A program made the translations under genes and the position numbers. A DNA stretch of 63,192 bases from the IMG/VR virus record IMGVR_UViG_3300049261_000006, positions 1 to 63,192 of that record. One strand, 5' to 3'. Positions 4,148 to 63,192 of the stretch are shown one piece after another. Source of the stretch: a virus (lineage: Duplodnaviria; Caudoviricetes). The notes under the pieces were generated by a model, which saw nothing but the letters and a program-made list of their open reading frames with translations, searched no databases and was not told the DNA's origin. Numbering within the stretch: the stretch's first letter is position 1; every line of letters begins with the position of its first letter.

Positions 4148-4365
4148 TCATGAACGAATATGCAGTACAACACCTACAAAAAATTGTCAAAGACAAAAAG
4201 TTGTTTTTGAAAATAGCACAAGCTGATTTAGTTGGTGCCAAAGAAAAAGTGGCAACTGAAGAAGAAAAGATCTTGGTGCTAGAATCAGACATTAGAAAAC
4301 TAGAATATACTATTAGTCAACTTTCACCTACTACTGAGCCACTACCAGATCCAGGAAATTACTGA
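4144..4365 (+). CDS. Hypothetical coiled-coil protein
   Basis: Heptad-rich ORF coupled to the next gene. Confidence 0.55.
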   Translation: MIMNEYAVQHLQKIVKDKKLFLKIAQADLVGAKEKVATEEEKILVLESDIRKLEYTISQLSPTTEPLPDPGNY

Positions 4366-17430: not shown

Positions 17431-20400
17431 ATGAAAAAAATCATACTGTTTTTATTGATTTCTATGACAGCTATGACTGGAGTAAAAGCACAGAGTGCAA
17501 ATCCATTTCCTAGCCTGGACAGTTTAATAAAATTTACTAATAAGTGGATACGTAATAACCAAGCCGACGCATTTACAAATCTACGGCTTAATAATATATT
17601 AATTGGGCTGTCGATGTTTTCTAAAACGTCGTATGGTGGTCAAGTAGTATCATTTACCAGGGTTGGTGATACGCTTCGTATTACTACCTTAGATTCTACT
17701 AAACACGATGTAGTTTTTGAAAATGGCGCATTAGGTACTGATCTTTCTTATACCAGGAATGGTACTACTGTTACAGTACTTTCGTCTTCAGGTATAGACG
17801 TGATATTGCCGCCAGTAACACAAAGCAGCGCGGGTGTGGCTACTGCATTAGATAAGCAAGCTATAGATAGCTCGACATCACTGCAAAGGTTACGTGATTC
17901 GTTATTAGAAGTAGTACACGTTTACGATACTGCTGCCATGCTTGCTGGGTACATGAGAAAGGATTCTGTGCCTGCTAAATTTACGCCAATAGCAGGCGAT
18001 AATATAGTAATAAGCGGTGCTTACCCTAACTTGATATTTACTGCAACAGGCGTGGTAAAATATACTGATACTTCTAGTATGTTTACTGCATACAGAACTT
18101 TAATTAATACTAAAATTTCTGACATACAAGGATTGATACGTGGCGATAGTACTACTATAACTACTACCGGCACTGGTACTGCTGGTGATCCGCTCATACT
18201 TACTTCTGTAGGTGGCGGCGGTGGTGGCACCATCGGAGTAGTATATGGTGTAACCAATAGAATTACTGTCACAAACGGTACTACTACTCCAACAGTAGAT
18301 ATATCTGCTGCATATGCAGGTCAAAATACTATTACTATACTAGGTACTGTAGGTACTGGCACATGGCAAGGTACTCCTATTACAAATGCGTATCTTGCGA
18401 ATAGTACTATAAGTTTTGCTACTCCTGGTACGTCTGGTACTGCACCAAACTGGTCAAGCTCACCAGTATCGCTTGGCGGTACCGCAACTCTTCAGATACC
18501 AATGGCTAGTGCTACTGGTGTAGTTGCTGGTTTAATTAGCAAATCACAGTATGATATATTAAATGCAAAGATAGGTGCATCTGATACTACCGGTAAATGG
18601 ATTAGTAAGTTATACCGTAGTAACGATTCAGTATATGCACAAATTGGCGGTTCATTAGTATACCAGTATAAAGATTCAGTAGGTGCAGGTAGCGGCGGCG
18701 GTACAGTGACACAAGTAAATACTGGTTATGGATTGTCAGGTGGTCCAATTACTGATACCGGCACTGCTATAGTAGATAGTGCCACCTTAGCACTTAAATT
18801 TTTACGTCGTGCAGATAGTATTACAGGATACGCAACTCCATACGATTTAACACTAAAACAAGACGCACTAGGATATATACCAGAAAACTTGGTCAATAAA
18901 AGCACCAATCCTAGTTTGGGTACTAGCAATACACTATACCCATCGCAGAATGCAGTTAAGAGTTATGTAGATGCAGGTTTGGCTCTAAAACAAAATTCAC
19001 TTTCACTTACTAATGTCGGTACTTCTGGCGCTGCAACGTTAGTAGGTTCAACTTTAAACATACCTATATACTCTGGTACTACTTATACAGCAGGTGTGCG
19101 GTTAACACTTACGGGTAATCAATTCAACGTAGATACTGCCGCGCTATTAGGACCATATCAAACCGCGTTAAATACGCGTGTAAGATATGCTGATACTACT
19201 AGCATATTAAGTACCTATCAAACTGCGCTAAATACTAAACTAAATAATATTACGGGCTATCTTAGCGCCGGTAGTAATGTTACAGTTACTGGGCTTGGTA
19301 CACTGGCAAGCCCGTACGTAATAGCATCATCTGGTGGCGGCGGTGGTTCATACATTTTTACACCGGCTGATTTTAACGAGGCAGGTTCTACTATCTCGCT
19401 AGATTATACTAATGGACAGAAAGCTACTACCTCCTTAAGTGGTTTTTTAGCCGCGTCAGACTGGAACATATTTAATAACAAACAAAATGCCATAACTACC
19501 GGCACAACTGCACAATACCTACGCGGTGATTTATCACTTGCTACTTTTCCAACTAACGTCTCAACATTTACTAACGACGCTGCATATCTGACTAATATAA
19601 CCGGTAAACTTACTGCTGGCAGTGGTATAAATGTTACTGGGTCGGGTACTACCGCAGCGCCATATATAATTAGTTCAAGCGCGCTCGGACTTTCAGCTGG
19701 TGATAAAGGAGACATTACTGTCGTAGATGCAACCAATTGGAATATTGATGCGTTAGCAGTAGGCAACGCCGAAATAAACGACGTGGCTTGGAGTAAAATT
19801 ACGTCAGTGCCTACGGATCTAGTTTATACTAACGCTACACAAACGCTGATTAATAAGACACTTACTTCGCCTAAAATAAACGTTGGTACCGATGCAACTG
19901 GCGATATGTACTACCGTGACGCATCAGGAAACCTCGTACGGTTAGGTATTGGTTCTAGTGGACAAGTTATTAAGGTAGTGTCTGGCCTGCCAGGATGGGC
20001 CGCAGATGCGACTAGTGGCGGCGGTGGTGCTACACTGGCAGACGGCGATTACGGGAGTGTAACAGTAAGCGGTACTGGTACTGCAATAAATATAGATGCC
20101 GGTGCAGTAGCAAATTCGCAGTTAGCCAATATGGCAACTCTTACTATTAAAGGCAATAATACCGGCGGTACTGCAGCGCCACAGGATCTGACAGTTGCAC
20201 AAGTGAATGCAATACTCCCAGTATTTACGTCGTCATTAAATGGTTTAGTGCCATCAAGCGGTGGCGGTACTACGTTCTTTCTACGCGCAGATGGTACATG
20301 GGCAGAGCCAGCAAGTGGATATTCTTTTGAAACAAATGATTTCAATGGCACAACTACTATTTCAATTGACTACGCCAATGGTCAAAAAGTAACTGGTAGC

Positions 20401-23400
20401 GTTCCAGGATTTTTGACCTCAGCGGATTATACCACACTAATGGCAAAACAAAATGCCATAACTACTGGTACTACTGCACAATATCTAAGAGGCGATTTAT
20501 CACTTGCTACATTTCCGACTACAGTATCAACATTTACTAATGATGCGGGATACTTAACTAATATTACCGGTAAATTAACCGCTGGTACAAATGTAAGTGT
20601 GACTGGACTAGGTACGACTGCATCGCCATACGTAATAAATTCTACTGCGAGTGGTACTGGTACAGTTACTAATTTTGCATTTACTAACGGTAATGGTTTT
20701 ACTGGCTCAGTAAGCACTGCGACGACTACTCCTACTTTATCGTTAGTATTACAAGATGCTGATGCTGGTGGTACTATAAAAGGTCAAGCAGGATTTACTG
20801 CAGCAGATTTTAATGCTGCGTCTGGTATTATATCCATGGATTGGACCAATACACAAAAAGCAAATGGTTCTCAGTCAGGTGCGTTGTCATCTACAGATTG
20901 GACCACATTTAACGGAAAACAAGGTGCTATAACAGTTACCAACGTAGGTACTTCTGGTGCTGCTACTTTAATTGGCAATACACTTAACATACCGATATAT
21001 AGCGGTGGTAGTAGTGCAGGTTTACCTCCTGGTGGTACTGCAGGTCAAATATTATCTAAAATAAATTCTACTGATTATAACGCACAGTGGATACCATACC
21101 CAACATTTAATGTATTTGCTGGATACGGAATATTAATTGACGGAGAAAATAATATATCACTAGATACCTCAGCAAGTAGTGATGTTTATATGCAACGTGG
21201 TAATCTAGTTGCAGGAGCAAATATCACTATCACTCCATCGGGTAATCAATATGTAATAGCTTCTACAGGTGGCGCGGGCGTAACTGATGGTGATAAAACA
21301 GATATTACTGTTTCAGGTTCTGGTGCTGTGTATACATTAGATCCTGGAGTACCTGCAACAAAGTTAGCAGATGGATCAGTTAGTAATGATGAATTACAAT
21401 ATATAAATACGCTTGCTAGCAATGCGCAAACTCAAATCGATGGTAAGAATTTTAATTTAGGTTGGCTTGATGCTGAAAATTATGGCGCAAGAGGAGACGG
21501 TAAAGACCTTAATTCAGTAGCAATAACAAGCGGGGATGCTACACTAACCTCTTCTGGTGCTTCATTTACTTCTGCTGATATTGGTAAAACTATTCGAGTT
21601 GATCAAGCTGGTTCATCAAGCGGAGATTTGGTTACTACTATTGCTTCTATAAACAGTAGCACAAGTATTGAACTGGCGGCTAACGCAAGTACTACTGTAT
21701 CAGGCGGTCATGCTGTTTATGGAACAGACAATACTACTCCGCTGCAGAATGCAATTAACGCAGCAGCGGCAACTACCTCAGCAGGCACTAAAACAGTTTT
21801 CCTAAGAAATGGAATGTACTTAATATTCGGCGCGCCGGTTACGTCAGTAAGTGGCGTAAATCCAAATGCTCAGCTCTATATACCTTTTAATAGCATAAGC
21901 AATACTATTACTTCACCATCGGTTAATATAGTTGGAGAAACACCGCCTAACTTATTTATAGATTTTCAAGCAAACAGCTTCCCAACAAATCAGGGTGTGG
22001 TCATTCGTTCTACGAGGTTAGATGCTGGTGCGAATATATTTGGTACGCCATGGGAGACTATGGTTTACGGAGATTATAATTACACTCATCTGCACATGGA
22101 AAACATTACCATCAGAGCAAGAAGTTTTACTGGAACTTCTCATGTTGCTCCGCAAATGTCTGCCTTGAAAATGGGTAAAATATCAATGCTTACAACTAAA
22201 AATTGTCGCTTTGATACTGAAAGTCCAACATACTATTCAGTTACACCGAATAGCTCCACAGTAGGTATACAAACTCCGCGACACAATAATGCCGATTTGA
22301 GTTACCATGAAAATATAGTGGTGCAAGGGTATTATGATGGCGTGGACGCAGGAGAAAATTCCAACTTCGTTAACCTGACTACGATGGGTAACTGGAACGG
22401 TGTTAAATTAAACACCATACATCATGCTGCTAAATTTTCAAGAGCTTCGATAAATTTAGCAGTTAATAATATTTATATAGAAGGACAATCATTTTTTGCT
22501 TTTGATCTAGCAGATTTTGAAGATTGGGGTGTGGGCGGAACAGGCGGATTTTGGTTCGACAATGTGTACGATCTTTATGATGCAAGCCCGGGAAATTCCC
22601 AAGGTCACATAAGATACCAACGCGTTGTTGGCGGTGTAGGATATGAAAATGATGTATTTGTAAAAAATTCTACTGCTTCAACATTTTCAATTGTACCTAT
22701 TGGCGGTGGCGGTGGAGATCTAGATGCTACACTAGCACTCGGTAATACTTCCGACGATAAAATGATACTTTCTGGATCTCTTACTACTGATGCAAAATTA
22801 AGGGTAGGATCTATGGAATTTCAACCGTTTGATGTAAATAACGGATTCATATCAGAAAATTTATATTATAATGGAGCGAATTTTATAAGAAGAGCTGCTG
22901 GTTTTGGAGCACTACAGTATAGTTATAAAGGAAGTTATTGGATTTCATCAGCTGATAGCGCAGCCGCTGGAAGTACAGCTACGGTAAATAAAAATTTTGA
23001 GGTAACACAAGGTGGCCAAATAAGATCTGGCCCTGCTACTACACTCAATCCTTCTTTTATAGACCCAATTAATTTTGTAAGTTATCCATTTTCTGGGAGC
23101 GGAACTGTATTTTATGGACAATCTACAGATGCTACAGCTCGCACCCAATCTATTCTGAGCAATTTGGGAGGAGGTACTACAGGTACAGCCTGGGCTGATA
23201 ACTTTATTACTACTATGGTTAACGGTAAATCGTATGCTAGCGATAACTACTTAAATGATGGAGAAAATGACGATAGCTTAGCTGCAATAATAGCACAAGG
23301 CGGAGATATAGGTAGATTCAGTATTGGTATGTATAACGAAAAGCCGATGTCTTTAGTAACAAATAACAGAGAGCGCTTAGTAATTAAAGGAGATGGAGCT

Positions 23401-24483
23401 ATAATTTTACCTCCTTATGCGGGTTTTGGTACTCAAAATTTAGCTGTCGATAATGATGGAAATTTAGTATTTGGTTCTGGTGGCGGCAGTTCTTCTCTTA
23501 CTAATATGTATATAGGATTTGGCAACGGATCAAATGAATTAAGTGGCGCATCCACATTTACATTTGATAATAGTACTACAAAGATTCTGGAAGTAAACAG
23601 TTCTGCTAACTCAGCAGGAGCAGCAGTATTGGCACTTGAAACCGATGCAGGCACATCTTATATACAAATGTATGGATCTGCTACGTCAACCTATGAAAAT
23701 TTGTCTTCAGCCGGAATGAATTTCTATAATACTACTACTGGAGGTATAAATTATCTAAATGAAAATAGTAGCGGAAAAATTAGTTTTCAAGTTGGTACAG
23801 GAGACCCGCAATTATCATTAAATACTTCTGGAGTAACTATAAATTCTGGATCAAATTCATTTACGCTACCTGTTGTAAGATCTGGTGTTAATGGATATGT
23901 GCTAAAGGGCAATACAGACGGTGGTGTTTATTGGGGAGTAGATGATACAGGTAGCGGCGGATTTTCGGACCCTTTAACTACAAATGGAGATATTATAACT
24001 AGAATATCTGGCTCAACAACAAGGTTAGCAGCTGGAACTGCATCATACGTACTTACTAGCAATGGTGCTGGTAACAATATTAGTTGGCAGCCAGTACCAG
24101 GTAGTGGACAAGATGCACAACACTATACATTATTTGGTACTACTTCTGGAACGTCAACGCTAGATGTAAGCGGATCTGTACCGGTATCAAATGGTGAATC
24201 TGGATATTTCGAGGTTACTGTGTATGCAATTAATTCAACTAGTAGTAGTTCTTGGACTTATAAATATCGTGTTCCATATTTATCTACGAGTTCTTCAACA
24301 ATAACTTTTGGTACAGTAGTACCAGAGTCATCAGCAGAGGTAGTAGGATCAGGCGGCATGGCAGGATCTACATTAGATCATGGATATAATGGTAGTGGTG
24401 ACATGATATTTGCATTTACAGCAGGTGAAACATCAGCAGTAAGAATTGAAATTAAGAAATATGTAGTAAGTTGGGCTGGATAA
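17431..24483 (+). CDS. Giant Gly/Thr/Ser-rich tail fibre or adhesin with beta-helix (pectate-lyase-like) domain and N-terminal signal peptide
   Basis: 2350 aa; MKKIILFLLISMTAMTGVKA|Q; internal repeats; YGARGDG...DNTTPLQNAINAA...VFLRNGMY beta-helix start. Confidence 0.8.
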   Translation: MKKIILFLLISMTAMTGVKAQSANPFPSLDSLIKFTNKWIRNNQADAFTNLRLNNILIGLSMFSKTSYGGQVVSFTRVGDTLRITTLDSTKHDVVFENGALGTDLSYTRNGTTVTVLSSSGIDVILPPVTQSSAGVATALDKQAIDSSTSLQRLRDSLLEVVHVYDTAAMLAGYMRKDSVPAKFTPIAGDNIVISGAYPNLIFTATGVVKYTDTSSMFTAYRTLINTKISDIQGLIRGDSTTITTTGTGTAGDPLILTSVGGGGGGTIGVVYGVTNRITVTNGTTTPTVDISAAYAGQNTITILGTVGTGTWQGTPITNAYLANSTISFATPGTSGTAPNWSSSPVSLGGTATLQIPMASATGVVAGLISKSQYDILNAKIGASDTTGKWISKLYRSNDSVYAQIGGSLVYQYKDSVGAGSGGGTVTQVNTGYGLSGGPITDTGTAIVDSATLALKFLRRADSITGYATPYDLTLKQDALGYIPENLVNKSTNPSLGTSNTLYPSQNAVKSYVDAGLALKQNSLSLTNVGTSGAATLVGSTLNIPIYSGTTYTAGVRLTLTGNQFNVDTAALLGPYQTALNTRVRYADTTSILSTYQTALNTKLNNITGYLSAGSNVTVTGLGTLASPYVIASSGGGGGSYIFTPADFNEAGSTISLDYTNGQKATTSLSGFLAASDWNIFNNKQNAITTGTTAQYLRGDLSLATFPTNVSTFTNDAAYLTNITGKLTAGSGINVTGSGTTAAPYIISSSALGLSAGDKGDITVVDATNWNIDALAVGNAEINDVAWSKITSVPTDLVYTNATQTLINKTLTSPKINVGTDATGDMYYRDASGNLVRLGIGSSGQVIKVVSGLPGWAADATSGGGGATLADGDYGSVTVSGTGTAINIDAGAVANSQLANMATLTIKGNNTGGTAAPQDLTVAQVNAILPVFTSSLNGLVPSSGGGTTFFLRADGTWAEPASGYSFETNDFNGTTTISIDYANGQKVTGSVPGFLTSADYTTLMAKQNAITTGTTAQYLRGDLSLATFPTTVSTFTNDAGYLTNITGKLTAGTNVSVTGLGTTASPYVINSTASGTGTVTNFAFTNGNGFTGSVSTATTTPTLSLVLQDADAGGTIKGQAGFTAADFNAASGIISMDWTNTQKANGSQSGALSSTDWTTFNGKQGAITVTNVGTSGAATLIGNTLNIPIYSGGSSAGLPPGGTAGQILSKINSTDYNAQWIPYPTFNVFAGYGILIDGENNISLDTSASSDVYMQRGNLVAGANITITPSGNQYVIASTGGAGVTDGDKTDITVSGSGAVYTLDPGVPATKLADGSVSNDELQYINTLASNAQTQIDGKNFNLGWLDAENYGARGDGKDLNSVAITSGDATLTSSGASFTSADIGKTIRVDQAGSSSGDLVTTIASINSSTSIELAANASTTVSGGHAVYGTDNTTPLQNAINAAAATTSAGTKTVFLRNGMYLIFGAPVTSVSGVNPNAQLYIPFNSISNTITSPSVNIVGETPPNLFIDFQANSFPTNQGVVIRSTRLDAGANIFGTPWETMVYGDYNYTHLHMENITIRARSFTGTSHVAPQMSALKMGKISMLTTKNCRFDTESPTYYSVTPNSSTVGIQTPRHNNADLSYHENIVVQGYYDGVDAGENSNFVNLTTMGNWNGVKLNTIHHAAKFSRASINLAVNNIYIEGQSFFAFDLADFEDWGVGGTGGFWFDNVYDLYDASPGNSQGHIRYQRVVGGVGYENDVFVKNSTASTFSIVPIGGGGGDLDATLALGNTSDDKMILSGSLTTDAKLRVGSMEFQPFDVNNGFISENLYYNGANFIRRAAGFGALQYSYKGSYWISSADSAAAGSTATVNKNFEVTQGGQIRSGPATTLNPSFIDPINFVSYPFSGSGTVFYGQSTDATARTQSILSNLGGGTTGTAWADNFITTMVNGKSYASDNYLNDGENDDSLAAIIAQGGDIGRFSIGMYNEKPMSLVTNNRERLVIKGDGAIILPPYAGFGTQNLAVDNDGNLVFGSGGGSSSLTNMYIGFGNGSNELSGASTFTFDNSTTKILEVNSSANSAGAAVLALETDAGTSYIQMYGSATSTYENLSSAGMNFYNTTTGGINYLNENSSGKISFQVGTGDPQLSLNTSGVTINSGSNSFTLPVVRSGVNGYVLKGNTDGGVYWGVDDTGSGGFSDPLTTNGDIITRISGSTTRLAAGTASYVLTSNGAGNNISWQPVPGSGQDAQHYTLFGTTSGTSTLDVSGSVPVSNGESGYFEVTVYAINSTSSSSWTYKYRVPYLSTSSSTITFGTVVPESSAEVVGSGGMAGSTLDHGYNGSGDMIFAFTAGETSAVRIEIKKYVVSWAG
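19480..20586 (+). repeat. Intragenic duplication of a 47-aa fibre module (19480-19620 and 20446-20586)
   Basis: KQNAITTGTTAQYLRGDLSLATFPT.VSTFTNDA.YLTNITGKLTAG twice, 45/47 aa identical. Confidence 0.9.
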
Positions 24484-34355: not shown

Positions 34356-34428
34356 GGTGATATACCGGATTCGAACCGGCGCCATATGGACCACAACCAT
34401 GCATGCTAACCGCTAACACCAATACCAC
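34356..34428 (-). tRNA. tRNA-His(GUG)
   Basis: Cloverleaf GTGGTAT/ATATCAC, loop TT-GTG-GT, GGTTCGAATCC, discriminator C; CCA not encoded. Confidence 0.9.
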
Positions 34429-34430
34429 AG

Positions 34431-34501
34431 TTTTCGCGACTGGGTTCGAACCAATACCATTAGATCCAAATTCTAATATGCTACCGTTGCACTACGCGAA
34501 A
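34431..34501 (-). tRNA. tRNA-Gln(UUG)
   Basis: TTTCGCG/CGCGAAA acceptor, TTAGA-AT-TTG-GA-TCTAA, GGTTCGAACCC. Confidence 0.88.
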
Positions 34502-34567
34502 AAAAATGAAGGTTCCTCATGCGCAGCACGTTAATACTGCGCGCGAGTATACCTACAACTAAGCTCG

Positions 34568-34639
34568 TAGAGTAGACAGGATTCGAACCTGCGCAGTCTT
34601 GATCCCAAATCAAGGAGCCTACCGTTGGCCTACTACTCT
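34568..34639 (-). tRNA. tRNA-Pro(UGG)
   Basis: AGAGTAG/CTACTCT acceptor, CTTGA-TT-TGG-GA-TCAAG, GGTTCGAATCC. Confidence 0.9.
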
Positions 34640-34644
34640 AAATG

Positions 34645-34672
34645 AAAAACCCCACACAACGTGCAGGGCTTC
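34645..34672 (-). terminator. Attenuator terminator directly upstream of tRNA-Pro
   Basis: Minus strand GAAGCCCTGCAC-GTT-GTGTGGGG-TTTTT. Confidence 0.75.
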
Positions 34673-34694
34673 GTATAGTTATACAGCAATGCAC

Positions 34695-34745
34695 TCAGAT
34701 GGGAATATCCGGTTGCGGTTGCTGATGTATGTTAATAATTTTCAT
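34695..34745 (-). CDS. Leader peptide MKIINIHQQPQPDIPI
   Basis: ATG 5 nt after a TATATTTG box; six consecutive His/Gln/Pro codons matching the downstream tRNAs. Confidence 0.75.
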   Translation of the reverse strand: MKIINIHQQPQPDIPI

Positions 34746-34750
34746 GAGAG

Positions 34751-34758
34751 CAAATATA
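34751..34758 (-). promoter_or_regulatory. Bacteroidota -7 box (TATATTTG) for the tRNA operon
   Basis: Perfect TAnnTTTG; no clear -33 element. Confidence 0.7.
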
Positions 34759-34771
34759 GTACAAAAATTAT

Positions 34772-34833
34772 TTTGAAAATATTTTAAAATAAATTTTTTT
34801 ATATGGATAATATTATATTATTTTACTCCATCA
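34772..34833 (+). promoter_or_regulatory. Repeated early/middle promoter element (62 bp identical to 45742-45803)
   Basis: Exact duplicate; related copies at ~36594-36660, ~49511-49557, ~50198-50257 and weaker ones at ~36385, ~40250 and ~51070; always intergenic before gene blocks. Confidence 0.75.
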
Positions 34834-34855
34834 ATACAAACTTAATAAAACAAAC

Positions 34856-35182
34856 ATGCCCAGACCGCTTACACTGTCAAAATTTAAAACTGACATCGAA
34901 TATATCTTACCTGGTGTAACACTGGATGTGCTCAAGAGCAGCAAGGATAAATTTCACGCTTCAGTAGAAATTCAATTCGGTAATGGTCTTAATATAGTAG
35001 ATGTTGACCTACAAACAGCGTGTGAAACAATTGAAGACGTAGTAAAAGAATTTAATAAACGTGATTATCTACACATGTTGTTAAAAAAACCCAGTGGCGA
35101 TTTTATCTTGTTTATTACTTATCTTCGCAACCCGGTACCAGTATCTACCCAGAATTTATCATTAATAAAATACATACCATGA
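34856..35182 (+). CDS. Hypothetical protein
   Basis: 108-aa ORF after promoter repeat and A-rich leader. Confidence 0.7.
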   Translation: MPRPLTLSKFKTDIEYILPGVTLDVLKSSKDKFHASVEIQFGNGLNIVDVDLQTACETIEDVVKEFNKRDYLHMLLKKPSGDFILFITYLRNPVPVSTQNLSLIKYIP

Positions 35183-35496
35183 ACGTTAAAGCTAAATCAC
35201 TAGAACAATTTTTTGCAGATCACGTATTGCCAAAGGACGCGTCAACTGAAAGGAGAATGGATTCAAAATACGGCCGTTTTTTGACTAAAGAATTTTTCGT
35301 ACGTAAAGAGAAATTTAATGACCAAAACATTATGTTCCAGTTAGAAGACCGTACCTACGAAACAAATCAATTGGTTATGATAAATATGAACTACGACATA
35401 TTGCCGTATGACGATATACATTTCAGAGCGTTGCACAGAGATACATTCGTAGAAATGGCAGATCCGGCAACGGAATCAACAGGACTAAAATTTTAA
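35179..35496 (+). CDS. Hypothetical protein
   Basis: ATGA-coupled ORF. Confidence 0.7.
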   Translation: MNVKAKSLEQFFADHVLPKDASTERRMDSKYGRFLTKEFFVRKEKFNDQNIMFQLEDRTYETNQLVMINMNYDILPYDDIHFRALHRDTFVEMADPATESTGLKF

Positions 35497-35577
35497 ACCA
35501 CATATGCTGGGCTCAATGTATGATGTCGACCGGTAGACGAAAAATGCGGCGGGCCCAGTTCTTTTAAACCTTAAACC

Positions 35578-35697
35578 ATGAAAAAATTAATCGTAATACT
35601 TTTAATCACTATCTTTGCCAGCAGTTGTGTAGTATCAAAATACGATTGCCCGGGCAGTAAGATGGTAGGTTGTCAAGGATATAAACCAAGATATTAA
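35578..35697 (+). CDS. 39-aa lipoprotein (MKKLIVILLITIFASS|CVVSKYDCPGSKMVGCQGYKPRY)
   Basis: Type II signal peptide with Cys17; not in the ORF track. Confidence 0.65.
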   Translation: MKKLIVILLITIFASSCVVSKYDCPGSKMVGCQGYKPRY

Positions 35698-35778
35698 TAT
35701 TTTCGTTTGGCGGCCGACGGGGAACATCGGCCAAATTACGGATTGATCCAGGTTGGTAGTCTTACCGACCTGCTTTTT

Positions 35779-35850
35779 GGAGATATAGCTCAGTTGGTAG
35801 AGCAGCGGACTGAAAATCCGTGGTCCCTGGTTCGATTCCAGGTTTCTCCA
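35779..35850 (+). tRNA. tRNA-Phe(GAA)
   Basis: GGAGATA/TTTCTCC acceptor (one mismatch), GCGGA-CT-GAA-AA-TCCGT, GGTTCGATTCC. Confidence 0.92.
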
Positions 35851-36006
35851 CTCAGACGGTTTGAATCCGTTGGTTGGCCGACAATCTTGATGAAGGAGAG
35901 TTAGGCAGTTTAACTCACAAGGAAAGGAGATCATAGAACTCCAAAGTACTTGATACCAGTACTGCAGGTAGGTGCAGGGCCTGACGCGCGGGAAAGACCG
36001 CGACAC
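35851..36006 (+). ncRNA. Candidate structured RNA between tRNA-Phe and tRNA-Lys
   Basis: GC-richer spacer made almost entirely of consecutive hairpins (GACGG/CCGTT, GAGTTA/TAACTC, GGAG/CTCC, AGTACT/AGTACT, CAGG/CCTG, CGCGG/CCGCG). Confidence 0.45.
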
Positions 36007-36080
36007 GTCTTCTTAGCTCAGCTGGTCAGAGCACTACACTTTTAATGTAGGGGCCGATGGTTCGAATCCATCAGGGGACA
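36007..36080 (+). tRNA. tRNA-Lys(UUU)
   Basis: GTCTTCT/AGGGGAC acceptor, CTACA-CT-TTT-AA-TGTAG, GGTTCGAATCC. Confidence 0.92.
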
Positions 36081-59778: not shown

Positions 59779-60012
59779 TTACACTTTCTTTATTGTGTTA
59801 ATCACTTCATCACCGATCCATTTTACTATACCATAGTAAGTATCTTCGCCATCTGAGAAGTGATGAACACAAAAACAGTCGTGGTAGTCAGTTTTATTTT
59901 CGGCGGCGTAGTGTTTGATAGAAGCACCGATAGAATCGCGGTCATGAAAATAAAATGGTTTAGGCTCTTCAGCTATCAAGTCTAAATCTTTGTTGTAATA
60001 ATTGTACTGCAT
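59779..60012 (-). CDS. Hypothetical early protein
   Basis: Start taken at ATG 60012 after a junction repeat. Confidence 0.6.
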   Translation of the reverse strand: MQYNYYNKDLDLIAEEPKPFYFHDRDSIGASIKHYAAENKTDYHDCFCVHHFSDGEDTYYGIVKWIGDEVINTIKKV

Positions 60013-60037
60013 AAAAAAGGTTTCTACTGATGGGGCT

Positions 60038-60292
60038 CTATTGAGCAATGAAATTTTCTTTGTATGCCATTTTTAAATGATCAATCGTCCATTGTTCCGG
60101 CTTAGTATTAAAGCCAGCCAGCTCCGGAAACAGGTACGGCAATGAAGATATGAGCACCGACATCTGTTCTTGTTGATTCAAATACCGGCAGAGGATAATA
60201 GGAATGTAGGTTTGATGTGGATTGGTTGCAGTAGGTGTGTAGGTTTTGATTGTGTGTTCAATGGCTTTGGCCTTGATGTTTTTAGGTAACAT
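60038..60292 (-). CDS. Hypothetical early protein
   Basis: ORF bounded by junction repeats; contains LFPEL. Confidence 0.65.
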   Translation of the reverse strand: MLPKNIKAKAIEHTIKTYTPTATNPHQTYIPIILCRYLNQQEQMSVLISSLPYLFPELAGFNTKPEQWTIDHLKMAYKENFIAQ

Positions 60293-60341
60293 AGCTTGAG
60301 TATTATGAATTAAAAAAAAAGGTTACTACTGGTAGGGCCTA

Positions 60342-60560
60342 TTAGTTAAAATCAATTGAACCATCCCATGCTTCAAATTCTAAGATGGCATCCACGTCAA
60401 TTTTAAGAGTAGTCCGCAGTGTATACTTATCGCGTGGTGATATATTGTTGAAGTAACCCACTGGGAGCACTTCTAGGGGCACGCTGTTGAAGTAAGTAAT
60501 CTCATCATCTTCATTGTAGGTGACAGTAGCATTGATCGAATTGAGTCTAAAGGTGTTCAT
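60342..60560 (-). CDS. Hypothetical early protein
   Basis: Stop abuts a junction repeat. Confidence 0.65.
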   Translation of the reverse strand: MNTFRLNSINATVTYNEDDEITYFNSVPLEVLPVGYFNNISPRDKYTLRTTLKIDVDAILEFEAWDGSIDFN

Positions 60561-60724
60561 TGTAGTATTTTTATGTTGGTGATGATATAACCGTGTACAG
60601 AGACATAGAAATCAAGATGGGTACCGAGTATTTTGAGTGAGTCGGCTTCGTAGGGATATTCCTTAGGCTCTCCTTGGAGACCACCATACCCATCAGATTC
60701 GTAGTAAGTGATGATGAAGTTCAT
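60557..60724 (-). CDS. Hypothetical early protein (55 aa)
   Basis: MNFIITYYESDGYGGLQGEPKEYP...; ATGA-coupled; not in the ORF track. Confidence 0.6.
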   Translation of the reverse strand: MNFIITYYESDGYGGLQGEPKEYPYEADSLKILGTHLDFYVSVHGYIITNIKILQ

Positions 60725-60779
60725 AAAAAGGATCATTTGTGGAGGGCCCTTTATTGGGCACCTCCGTTTGAATGGATAA

Positions 60780-61205
60780 TTATTTGATTACTTCTACCAG
60801 TGATGGAGCACACCGGACCTTACCTCTTGAAGATGATAAGAGGAGATTCTTCACCTTCTTCTCGACCACTATACAGTCACCATACTTGGCAATTAGGAGT
60901 ATGTCTTTGAATCTGACAGTATCACCAATTTTAAAGTCATCCTTAGAAGGTGCCTTTATGTCATAATTAGGCCATAGTTTTGAGAGTGTTTCCGGTACAC
61001 AGAGTGCATCCATGGCGGTGCCTAAGGTGCCACCTGTATTGATATGGTTATTGACAAAGGTGGTCATCTTATTGAATGCTGCGTGGTTCATGCCTTGGCC
61101 AGTGATGCCGTTCCGGCCATGTCGGTATTTACCGGCGGGTGTGAACAGTGTGATGGAGTCAAATTGAATGTCGAGACGGACTTCGTTTTTCTTAAACTTT
61201 TGCAT
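60780..61205 (-). CDS. Hypothetical early protein (C-terminal SH3/KOW-like)
   Basis: FKIGDTVRF..CIVVEK; own AT-rich promoter-like region at 61220-61275. Confidence 0.7.
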   Translation of the reverse strand: MQKFKKNEVRLDIQFDSITLFTPAGKYRHGRNGITGQGMNHAAFNKMTTFVNNHINTGGTLGTAMDALCVPETLSKLWPNYDIKAPSKDDFKIGDTVRFKDILLIAKYGDCIVVEKKVKNLLLSSSRGKVRCAPSLVEVIK

Positions 61206-61267
61206 GATTATTAAGTTTTATTGTTTAGTAAATATAGGACTTTTGTTTGAATATAAAAAATATATTT

Positions 61268-61510
61268 TCAATATTTTTTCAATTTATTTCCTTCCCATTT
61301 GTAGGTAATATAGGAAAATTTAATTTCTCCGTCCCAGTCAGAATACGGCATTGTAAGTATGCATTCACACTGAGTAAAATCCACCTTAGCGAGCACGGCA
61401 AGTGAGTGGATGGAGGTACCTATTGCCAATTCAGATAATGGTTCAAATGAATCTGGACGGTCATCTTCTCCGATTAAATTTCCGACGCTGTCAAAATATT
61501 GGTATAGCAT
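61268..61510 (-). CDS. Hypothetical early protein
   Basis: Start taken at ATG 61510. Confidence 0.6.
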   Translation of the reverse strand: MLYQYFDSVGNLIGEDDRPDSFEPLSELAIGTSIHSLAVLAKVDFTQCECILTMPYSDWDGEIKFSYITYKWEGNKLKKY

Positions 61511-61562
61511 AAAAAAGGTATTATTGAATGGGTGTAAAAAAGGATCATTTGTGGAGGGCCTA

Positions 61563-62015
61563 TTAGATTTTATAGTACATATCACACAAAATACCATTGG
61601 TTTTATCCAATGAATATTGGTTAATCCCTATCTTTTGACCGGTTATTTCGAAGAATTTCTGTTGATCATTAGAGACATTCTGGACTATCCTATTCCAATC
61701 TTTTTGTGTCATGTAGCGATATCCATCTTCTTTAAACGGTTTCCTAGTGGACACCATTTTAAGTTTAAACCAGATCGGTAGACCATCGTGGCGGTAGTAG
61801 TCCGAGTCGTTACGGAGATATACTTCCGGTTGAAAAGATTCTACTTCAAACCTAATGGCCTTAAAACCTTTCTGGATGAGTTCGAAATTTTGGACAAAGT
61901 GTTCTAAACATTTCTTTTTTAATTCAAACCCAAGAGTGATATTGTCAATTTGACTTTGAATCTTTTTGACTTCATCTTGATGATTTTTGGTCAAAATATC
62001 CATGTAATTAATCAT
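61563..62015 (-). CDS. Hypothetical early protein downstream of hammerhead 1
   Basis: 150-aa ORF. Confidence 0.7.
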   Translation of the reverse strand: MINYMDILTKNHQDEVKKIQSQIDNITLGFELKKKCLEHFVQNFELIQKGFKAIRFEVESFQPEVYLRNDSDYYRHDGLPIWFKLKMVSTRKPFKEDGYRYMTQKDWNRIVQNVSNDQQKFFEITGQKIGINQYSLDKTNGILCDMYYKI

Positions 62016-62031
62016 AAAAAAAAATGTTTTT

Positions 62032-62089
62032 AAGTTGTGACAGGTAAGTGAATACCTGTTTCGTCCTATGAGGTCTCATCAGACAACTT
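62032..62089 (-). ncRNA. Type I hammerhead ribozyme (HH1)
   Basis: AAGTTGT-CTGATGA-GACCT CAT AGGAC-GAA-ACAGGTA TTCACT TACCTGT-C-ACAACTT; GUC cleavage site; one A-A mismatch in stem II. Confidence 0.85.
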
Positions 62090-62120
62090 TGGAGAGAAAA
62101 AAGGTTACTACTGGTAGGGC

Positions 62121-62312
62121 CTAAAATTGTTCCACTTCTGTTATTCGATCCGTGAGTGCTTCAAGGAAGTTTCTTACTCTTTGTAAGTCCTCTTCATCCA
62201 CATAACCGGTTTCGAACATTTCCATTTGTTCAGTTAAATCTGTCTTAATTACTTTAAGAGTTTCTAGATTCAAGAGTTCTAACAACTCATAAGACGCAAG
62301 TATACATTTCAT
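62121..62312 (-). CDS. Hypothetical early protein
   Basis: Acidic helical ORF between junction repeats. Confidence 0.65.
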   Translation of the reverse strand: MKCILASYELLELLNLETLKVIKTDLTEQMEMFETGYVDEEDLQRVRNFLEALTDRITEVEQF

Positions 62313-62348
62313 ATTTACAATTTTTTAAAAGGTTACTACTGGTAGGGC

Positions 62349-62525
62349 CTATGAACCTATCCAAATTTCTTCAATATCTTCAATGTTGTTTAAAACTTTG
62401 TGGACTTCATTTCCACTGGTGAGATTATCACAATAATTTTCTAAATCTTGTGCGATTTTAGATAATGTTTCTTTGGATAACAATGGGAGAATTTCATCCC
62501 ATGTTAATTTGGACTTTCTTTCCAT
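62349..62525 (-). CDS. Hypothetical early protein (58 aa) downstream of hammerhead 2
   Basis: MERKSKLTWDEILPLLSKETLSK...; TAG stop is the start of a junction repeat; not in the ORF track. Confidence 0.65.
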   Translation of the reverse strand: MERKSKLTWDEILPLLSKETLSKIAQDLENYCDNLTSGNEVHKVLNNIEDIEEIWIGS

Positions 62526-62542
62526 TTTAAAAAGGTTTTATT

Positions 62543-62594
62543 GTGTGTGACGTGCATGGGCACGTTTCGTTGACTGACAACTCATCAGACACAC
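62543..62594 (-). ncRNA. Type I hammerhead ribozyme (HH2)
   Basis: GTGTGT-CTGATGA-GTTG TCAGT CAAC-GAA-ACGTGC CCAT GCACGT-C-ACACAC; all stems perfectly paired, intact core. Confidence 0.92.
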
Positions 62595-62619
62595 TTAAAA
62601 AAGGATCATTTGTGGTACC

Positions 62620-62820
62620 CTATTCCCAAAAGAAGTCAGGTTCAACGGTTTTTTCCGTTATATTGTATCTGTTCCATGTATTCTTAAAAGTCCAATGTAG
62701 TTTATACTCATCGCGACTAAGAGTACCTATTAGTTCGTAGTACTGGTATAATGTATACCCATGGTACTTGGATGAGTCAGTTATACAGTCGTACACTTGA
62801 CCGTCGATTTTGACTTTCAT
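62620..62820 (-). CDS. Hypothetical early protein
   Basis: Start taken at ATG 62820 (MKVKIDGQ). Confidence 0.65.
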   Translation of the reverse strand: MKVKIDGQVYDCITDSSKYHGYTLYQYYELIGTLSRDEYKLHWTFKNTWNRYNITEKTVEPDFFWE

Positions 62821-62833
62821 ATTTAAAAAGGTT

Positions 62834-62935
62834 TTATTGTGCGATGACTGATAAACACTGTAAAAGTCCAATAAATCCAACAGAAAGAATAATGATCACC
62901 TTTACATCATCAGATGTGTAGTTTAACTGTTTCAT
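62834..62935 (-). CDS. 33-aa hydrophobic microprotein
   Basis: MKQLNYTSDDVKVIIILSVGFIGLLQCLSVIAQ; first ORF of the leftward operon. Confidence 0.5.
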   Translation of the reverse strand: MKQLNYTSDDVKVIIILSVGFIGLLQCLSVIAQ

Positions 62936-62939
62936 TTTT

Positions 62940-63130
62940 AAAGTTTTAATTGTTATTTGTTACTGTAAATTTAAACAAAAAGTTTGAAAGTAAAAAGTTT
63001 TTTTGTAATTATTTTTATTTATTTTTTACTTTTTAATTATTTGTTTTTGAATTATTTAATTGTTATTTGTTATGTAAATATAATCAAACAATTTGAATTA
63101 AAAAAATATTTTTATAATTATTTTCAAATT
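62940..63130 (-). promoter_or_regulatory. Tandem AT-rich early promoters of the leftward operon
   Basis: Two copies of TTCAAA..TA(A/T)ATTTACA..TAACAAATAACAATTAAA; a related element precedes ORF 61205. Confidence 0.5.
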
Positions 63131-63192
63131 ATTTTAAATAAATAGTTATTAACATTTTCAATTTAAATTTTTTACTTTCAAACTTTTAATAT

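Follow-up and report, generated by a model that had tools for sequence, protein, structure and literature searches.

Two predicted type I hammerhead ribozymes just upstream of start codons in a leftward operon of small orphan genes at the end of a 63-kb phage genome

The window analysed here, meaning the whole stretch of 63,192 bp, corresponds to a complete virus record (linear, with a CheckV completeness estimate of 100%). Its plus strand encodes a terminase, a portal, an HK97-type capsid and a tape-measure-like protein, and also a DNA polymerase, a primase-helicase and an SNF2 helicase. The right end is occupied by an operon of small genes running in the opposite direction, none of which was assigned to a family in comparisons of all 11 with PHROG and Pfam. 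Two candidate hammerhead ribozymes, hereafter HH-A and HH-B, lie on the coding strand of this operon, each in a gap between genes and shortly before a start codon. The operon and the genes next to the two elements are as follows:

59779 to 62935, minus strand: 11 small ORFan genes forming a leftward operon where the linear record ends on the right; the remaining genome is read rightward
62620 to 62820, minus strand: 66-aa ORFan gene upstream of HH-A, with its TAG stop codon at 62622-62620
62349 to 62525, minus strand: 58-aa ORFan gene downstream of HH-A, without PHROG or Pfam family and forming a singleton cluster
62121 to 62312, minus strand: 63-aa ORFan gene, without PHROG or Pfam family
61563 to 62015, minus strand: 150-aa (or 146-aa) ORFan gene downstream of HH-B, without PHROG or Pfam family

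The genes flanking the hammerheads are singletons without homologues. A paralogous relationship between the 58-aa and the 63-aa genes was considered and found to be unsupported (BLASTP E 26). The sequencing runs listed as containing the stretch are of soil-metagenome DNA only, with no RNA run among them. Elsewhere in the genome, the plus strand carries a 2350-aa ORF (17431-24483) past the tape-measure region that has no PHROG or Pfam match, and the interval 34356-36080 contains five tRNA genes, of which the minus strand carries three and the plus strand two.

A Shine-Dalgarno-like word was present at positions -20 to -5 in only 3 of the 54 plus-strand ORFs of at least 100 aa, and the regions upstream of these ORFs are A/T-rich and G-poor. 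Both features are consistent with a Bacteroidota-like host, one that probably does not use Shine-Dalgarno sequences. Sigma-70-type promoters occur at a frequency no higher than in shuffled sequences, and no convincing terminator was found in the operon. Three similar promoter-like repeats were noticed on the minus strand, at approximately 63098-63050, 62988-62940 and 61252-61212, each composed of TTCAAA, about 11 nt, TAtATTTAC and then an AACAA-rich segment; two stand in tandem ahead of the first operon gene and one ahead of the gene at 61205, a placement suggesting that the region comprises at least two transcription units. The assignment of a Bacteroidota-like host rests on the scarcity of Shine-Dalgarno words and on these promoter-like repeats, with their putative TAnnTTT-type box. 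On the plus strand, the non-coding stretch preceding the first rightward gene contains two to three repeats of about 46 nt (171-432; AAAGTGCCT ... ACCAAAGTTTGA), spaced by 116 and 104 nt.

The two hammerheads were delineated by reading the sequence and with a structural descriptor:

62543 to 62594, minus strand: HH-A, type I hammerhead, stems of 6, 4 and 6 bp
62594-62589 with 62548-62543, minus strand: HH-A stem I, 6 bp (GUGUGU/ACACAC)
62588-62582, minus strand: HH-A CUGAUGA
62581-62569, minus strand: HH-A stem-loop II, 4 bp with a 5-nt loop
62568-62566, minus strand: HH-A GAA
62565-62550, minus strand: HH-A stem-loop III, 6 bp with a 4-nt loop, followed by GUC
62549, minus strand: HH-A C17, with the predicted cut at 62549/62548
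62032 to 62089, minus strand: HH-B, type I hammerhead, stems of 7, 4 plus a mismatch, and 7 bp
62089-62083 with 62038-62032, minus strand: HH-B stem I, 7 bp
62082-62076, minus strand: HH-B CUGAUGA
62075-62063, minus strand: HH-B stem-loop II, with G-C, A.A (10.2/11.2), C-G, C-G and U-A
62062-62060, minus strand: HH-B GAA
62059-62040, minus strand: HH-B stem-loop III, 7 bp with a 6-nt loop, followed by GUC
62039, minus strand: HH-B C17, with the predicted cut at 62039/62038

In both elements the 5' strand of stem I is followed by CUGAUGA, hairpin II, GAA, hairpin III, UC and the 3' strand of stem I. The topology is that of type I, stem I being open and stems II and III closed by loops. The type I core (C3 U4 G5 A6 N7 G8 A9, G12 A13 A14, the A15.1-U16.1 pair and a residue other than G at position 17) is present in each, as are standard pairs at the positions adjoining it (1.1-2.1, 10.1-11.1 and 15.1-16.1); the A.A of HH-B is not core-adjacent. 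All three stems differ in sequence between HH-A and HH-B, with pairing retained. Of the loop II positions showing little or no variation in a hammerhead alignment (A2), namely U18, A20 and U22, HH-A retains all three and HH-B only U18 and A20. The tertiary contact between loop II and stem I is needed for fast hammerhead cleavage at cellular magnesium concentrations.

When applied to the genome, the descriptor identified only these two type I sites, compared with three in total over 300 dinucleotide shuffles under lenient thresholds. A covariance model (R1) was derived from a set of 10 unrelated phage hammerheads of IMG/VR that share the commonest geometry, none of them from the analysed genome. 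Searched against the 63-kb genome with filters off, R1 scored 51.4 bits for HH-A (E 3.6e-17) and 40.8 bits for HH-B (E 5.2e-13); the next-best match reached 11.1 bits, leaving HH-A and HH-B as the only credible ones, and a positive-control search of the genome returned the same two. Among 87 R1 matches from the analysed genome and 99 sampled loci, HH-A ranked 35th and HH-B 52nd. Pairing in the R1 family alignment amounted to 97.8% of cells, against 59.8% after shuffling and 33-37% with the partners slid, and its covariation score was 0.865 against 0.175, which strongly supports the structure for the family as a whole, with the caveat that model fitting produced the alignment and a core pattern served to choose the loci. 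A weak type II hammerhead-like descriptor match was also seen on the plus strand at 4204-4267 (CUGAAGA, A-rich 5-bp stems); it is without R1 support and is probably due to chance.

Rfam was far less informative. At the gathering threshold, a search of the whole genome yielded five tRNAs only and no hammerhead (the RF00163 cut-off is 34 bits). With E values up to 10, the interval 61500-63192 gave nothing for HH-A, and matches of HH-B to Hammerhead_3 (25 bits) and to the RAGATH-1 hammerhead (22.3 bits); for the remainder of the operon, E values up to 1 brought no match to any RNA family. In a control set of 20 loci with about 28 descriptor-positive type I hammerheads, four RF00163 matches were obtained, at 25.1-30.5 bits, none reaching 34. 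With none of the hammerhead matches in these 20 loci reaching Rfam gathering, a sub-gathering result is a weak and uninformative test of the two elements. The permuted reading of HH-B implied by Hammerhead_3 pairs a neighbouring repeat (element A, below) with a strand of stem III and has mismatches; the type I reading is preferred because it provides seven perfect pairs in each of stems I and III. HH-B resembles the RAGATH-1 hammerhead (RF03152) in the GAC...GGAC ends of its stem-loop II, and its assignment to that family was rejected (E 0.76; gathering score 56.3; the family's upstream hairpin unmatched). Judged by sequence, descriptor and R1 together, HH-A and HH-B are genuine type I hammerheads. 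The original prediction had described two such ribozymes on the coding strand with intact cores, different stems and cuts at 62549/62548 and 62039/62038; strand, cores and differing stems are upheld by these data, and the predicted cut positions agree with both the sequence reading and the descriptor. It had also noted an A-A mismatch in stem II. This mismatch exists; it belongs to the ribozyme predicted to cut at 62039 (HH-B) and not to the first-listed one, to which it had been ascribed.

Cleavage at the predicted positions would leave the following leaders:

62526 to 62548, minus strand: leader A, 23 nt separating the predicted 5'-OH end from the ATG at 62525, beginning with ACA, without G, A/U 18/23
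62016 to 62038, minus strand: leader B, 23 nt to the ATG at 62015 (35 nt if the start is at 62003), beginning with ACA, without G, A/U 20/23

The final 17 nt of leader A recur ahead of the gene starting at 62820. The genome being nearly free of Shine-Dalgarno words, an unstructured, A/U-rich leader could plausibly act as a start signal. The gene calls on the record place the start of the 58-aa gene at 62525 and give the gene after HH-B as 146 aa, with its ATG at 62003, 12 nt later than the first ATG, which would lengthen the leader to 35 nt; the 150-aa form is unrecorded. A U run directly before the ATG is a habit of the operon's genes and favours 62015 as the start. Thus, the two A/U-rich leaders starting with ACA are as had been described, and the claim that both are 23 nt long holds for the first ATGs (62525 and 62015) and fails for the second leader if the recorded start is used. 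Two short complementarities were noticed by eye on the minus strand: loop II of HH-B (UCAUA) with UAUGA at the downstream start codon (62013-62017), and loop III of HH-A (CCAU) with AUGG at the downstream start codon (62522-62525). Being this short, they could have arisen by chance.

The original prediction had further proposed a fixed leader length and called for a survey of the spacing in related phages. IMG/VR was sampled with a generic core pattern, and at least 126 stretches gave 80 distinct descriptor-positive type I hammerheads among the matches listed. An ATG-initiated ORF was found within 200 nt for 72 of these 80 among the matches listed, and none for the other 8. For the 72, again among the matches listed, the distance from cut to ATG has a median of 27 nt (interquartile range 23-41, range 10-194); it is 45 nt or less in 57 cases and 18-30 nt in 36, the commonest values including 26 nt (9 cases) and 23 nt (5 cases). 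For 62 of the listed matches an upstream ORF was found, and in 29 of them only 0-9 nt separate its stop codon from the ribozyme. The sampled distances and stop codon positions indicate that stop codon, ribozyme, short leader and start codon, in this order, make up the normal phage layout. A search of the literature brought to light no measurement of cut-to-start spacing for phage hammerheads. The identity, position and strand of the two motifs, and the typical layout in which they stand, are shown by the analysis, and their spacing of 23 nt sits in the mode of the sampled phage distribution.

The survey revealed no constant distance, and a fixed leader length is not supported by it in the form proposed. 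Selection for a leader of exactly 23 nt, yielding standardised and stabilised mRNAs, would account for both first ATGs standing precisely 23 nt past the cut. Among the matches listed, the probability that two random draws are equal is 0.043, or 0.057 when the 61 distances of 60 nt or less are considered, so that equality by chance is expected at about 4-6%; and in the five listed contigs with two or three hammerheads, the distances of two hammerheads from the same contig come within 2 nt of each other in 6 of 11 pairs. Against this, none of these 11 pairs among the matches listed is exactly equal, the sampled distances spread from 10 to 194 nt with 23 nt in only 5 of 72, the interval from the end of stem I to the ATG is 17 nt for HH-A and 16 nt for HH-B, and the recorded call of the second gene gives 35 nt. 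We consider such selection distinctly improbable. The equal spacing is most readily understood as the ribozyme being packed tightly against the ribosome-binding region, and not as a fixed 23-nt rule; the exact match should not be taken for a design rule, and the case is in itself ordinary.

No relatives of the stretch were found at the DNA level in the phage collection. The 150-aa protein has no relatives in the phage collection or in IMG/VR and finds only itself among 5.8 billion clusters. Relatives of the SNF2 helicase, at most 63% identical, were recovered from 80 IMG/VR and 80 metagenome loci. No credible hammerhead was present in these 160 loci (2.19 Mb scanned, the analysed genome included), and R1 matched none of five whole relative records. 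Six weak descriptor rows, at five places in the helicase-relative loci, have stems of 3-6 bp and lack CUGAUGA; they were read as chance. The absence of hammerheads from the distant relatives examined suggests that HH-A and HH-B are sporadic acquisitions. This sporadic distribution, together with the singleton character of the flanking genes, is what would be expected if the hammerheads were passengers of mobile small-gene cassettes, each made of a ribozyme and an orphan gene, which may cut while bringing the phage little or no benefit. Tandem hammerheads of other contigs share identical stem I sequences among the matches listed, which likewise suggests copying with cassettes. However, the perfect cores and intact stems of both elements would argue for maintained activity, and the start-adjacent position is the same as in most phage hammerheads among the matches listed. 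A passenger status is, in our estimate, quite unlikely.

The predicted minimum-energy fold contains the hammerhead in neither HH-A nor HH-B. In HH-A, loop II offers a GUCAG to which CUGAU pairs, placing the active fold at +0.9 kcal/mol with a probability of 0.046; in HH-B, the core and one half of stem I are hidden by a larger 5'-proximal hairpin, and the active fold lies at +4.8 kcal/mol with a probability of 0.0002. The competitor hairpins are predicted for both elements in isolation as well as with their flanks. By comparison, the hammerhead is the minimum-energy fold in 72 of the 80 sampled phage hammerheads among the matches listed, where a hammerhead-fold probability lower than that of HH-A was obtained in 3 of 80 and lower than that of HH-B in 1 of 80. 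Nearest-neighbour energies take no account of tertiary contacts in the hammerhead core, and the folding result is accordingly a lead and not proof of slow cleavage. The original prediction had suggested that the ribozyme with the A-A mismatch may be slower. In the folding model, this fits the disfavoured active fold of HH-B, and it also fits the family count: HH-B is alone among 85 distinct family rows in having a non-standard 10.2/11.2 pair.

It seems conceivable that both ribozymes are gated or attenuated: loop II would complement CUGAUGA, the competing hairpin would form first, and cleavage would be delayed or made conditional, with splitting of the RNA timed or triggered. Besides the predicted hairpins and the rarity of so disfavoured a hammerhead fold among the matches listed, this reading can draw on Perreault et al., who in the relevant passage raise regulated cleavage for slow phage variants (PMC3088659). 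On the other side stand the omission of core tertiary contacts from the energies, the difference of 0.9 kcal/mol for HH-A, which is within the error of the model, and the finding of no relatives in which the competitor pairing is conserved. Moreover, two cases could be a coincidence, since a UCA or CAU in any loop is enough for pairing with the core. Gating appears rather unlikely.

Each hammerhead is preceded by a copy of an operon-specific element some 25 nt long. Seven copies were found, all on the minus strand within the operon (60013-62626), falling into two types, GGCCCTACCAGTAGTAACC (A) and GGCCCTCCACAAATGATCC (B), each followed by a T run:

62097 to 62123, minus strand: element A (TAG stop codon, then GGCCCTACCAGTAGTAACC, then T run), ending 8 nt before HH-B
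62325-62351 and 60315-60341, minus strand: identical copies of element A
60013-60039, minus strand: variant of element A
61537-61565 and 60725-60753, minus strand: copies of element type B
62598 to 62626, minus strand: variant B', overlapping a stop codon and ending 4 nt before HH-A

Three exact copies of element A were seen against none expected. The element usually begins on the TAG stop codon of the upstream gene, and the next ATG sometimes adjoins it. It forms no hairpin. A degenerate pattern covering A and B had no matches in IMG/VR; the 21 single matches obtained in GTDB genomes are about the number expected by chance, resemble one another at the fixed positions only and were discarded. 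The element is possibly a regulator site, a nuclease site or a cassette boundary. One could imagine that the competitor hairpins and the 25-nt element together form a timed or factor-triggered switch, in which a bound phage or host factor, or the passage of a ribosome, would set the time at which the operon RNA is split; we regard such a switch as a slightly longer shot than gating by the hairpins.

The reading that we favour, and hold to be reasonably probable, is constitutive self-cleavage. After transcription, the hammerheads would adopt their three-helix junction, and the RNA would be cut behind C17, at 62549/62548 and at 62039/62038. A folded ribozyme bearing a 2',3'-cyclic phosphate would cap the 3' end of each upstream piece; each downstream piece would start with a 5'-OH, and a clean leader of about 23 nt, G-free and A/U-rich, would precede its next start codon. 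Three multi-gene pieces would arise from the operon RNA, with two genes, two genes and the rest; the middle one, between the predicted cuts, measures 510 nt (62548-62039) and carries the 58-aa and 63-aa genes. For the 58-aa and 150-aa genes, the region where translation starts would no longer be attached to upstream sequence, a natural counterpart of the ribozyme insulator. Such cleavage may take place in the cell and may affect stability or translation. The notion that the operon is processed into translation-ready mRNAs of single genes is at odds with the arrangement: two cuts make three multi-gene pieces, a ribozyme stands at 2 of about 10 gene junctions, and 9 of the 11 genes are without one.

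The presence of two hammerheads on the same strand, and the ACA with which both 3' products begin, also call to mind that the pair might excise the 510-nt two-gene segment as a circular RNA, or that ligation by the ribozyme or by RtcB might splice it out. Perreault et al. raise this possibility and, in the same account, state that such products could not be detected (PMC3088659). In addition, the stem I sequences of HH-A and HH-B differ, so a hybrid ribozyme would have only three core-adjacent pairs (counted by eye). Excision or splicing of this kind is extremely unlikely.

Taking cleavage into three linear pieces as the preferred reading, a parallel can be drawn with the early genes of phage T7, where RNase III makes the intercistronic cuts, the enzyme being supplied by the host and a 5' phosphate being left. 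Here as there, a polycistronic phage transcript would be split and the upstream piece would carry a folded 3' end; unlike in T7, the RNA is predicted to cut itself and to leave a 5'-OH. Another parallel is RiboJ, which originates from a satellite RNA ribozyme to which a hairpin was added. As described in PMC6206723, RiboJ is a self-cleaving ribozyme upstream of the ribosome-binding region that renders the leader constant whatever lies upstream, a property that HH-A and HH-B may share; RiboJ is an engineered, synthetic insulator, whereas HH-A and HH-B are natural and lie inside an operon. The cut-to-start figures obtained here make the idea of a natural insulator testable.

The idea of processing by phage hammerheads is not new. 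Passages of Perreault et al. (2011) report that clustered prophage hammerheads cleaved in vitro within native transcripts of about 2 kb, and propose processing of polycistronic phage RNA by such clusters (PMC3088659); a 2019 review repeats this idea and, in the section concerned, calls the role of bacterial and phage hammerheads unproven (PMC6765202). The prophage clusters, as they are described in PMC3088659, resemble the present case in being type I with a consensus core, in occurring as several same-strand copies between small phage genes, flanking single genes or short blocks, and in the proposed cutting of long phage transcripts into shorter mRNAs. The present locus differs from them in its probably Shine-Dalgarno-less host, the 25-nt element preceding each ribozyme and the predicted competitor hairpins, and here cleavage is predicted from sequence. 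In the HHphage of haloviruses HF1 and HF2, the same source describes a hammerhead a few nt upstream of the first gene's start codon in an early polycistronic transcript, with a mapped 5' end near the cut (PMC3088659). That hammerhead is, by this description, a core variant of an archaeal virus, with 13 nt between it and the start codon, while HH-A and HH-B have the consensus core and a distance of 23 nt.

HH-A and HH-B thus add to a known type, that of clustered phage hammerheads between small genes. The locus provides a clean example in a probably non-Shine-Dalgarno host, with two hammerheads separated by 510 nt within an orphan-gene operon, and the survey supplies the field with a number: among the matches listed, the cut falls a median of 27 nt before the next start, often with the previous stop codon adjoining. 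In the course of the sampling, a twister-P1-like match (47.5 bits, cut-off 67.2) was observed on the minus strand of an unrelated IMG/VR contig (L253:560-624), about 210 nt from a type I hammerhead, which fits the known clustering of ribozyme classes.
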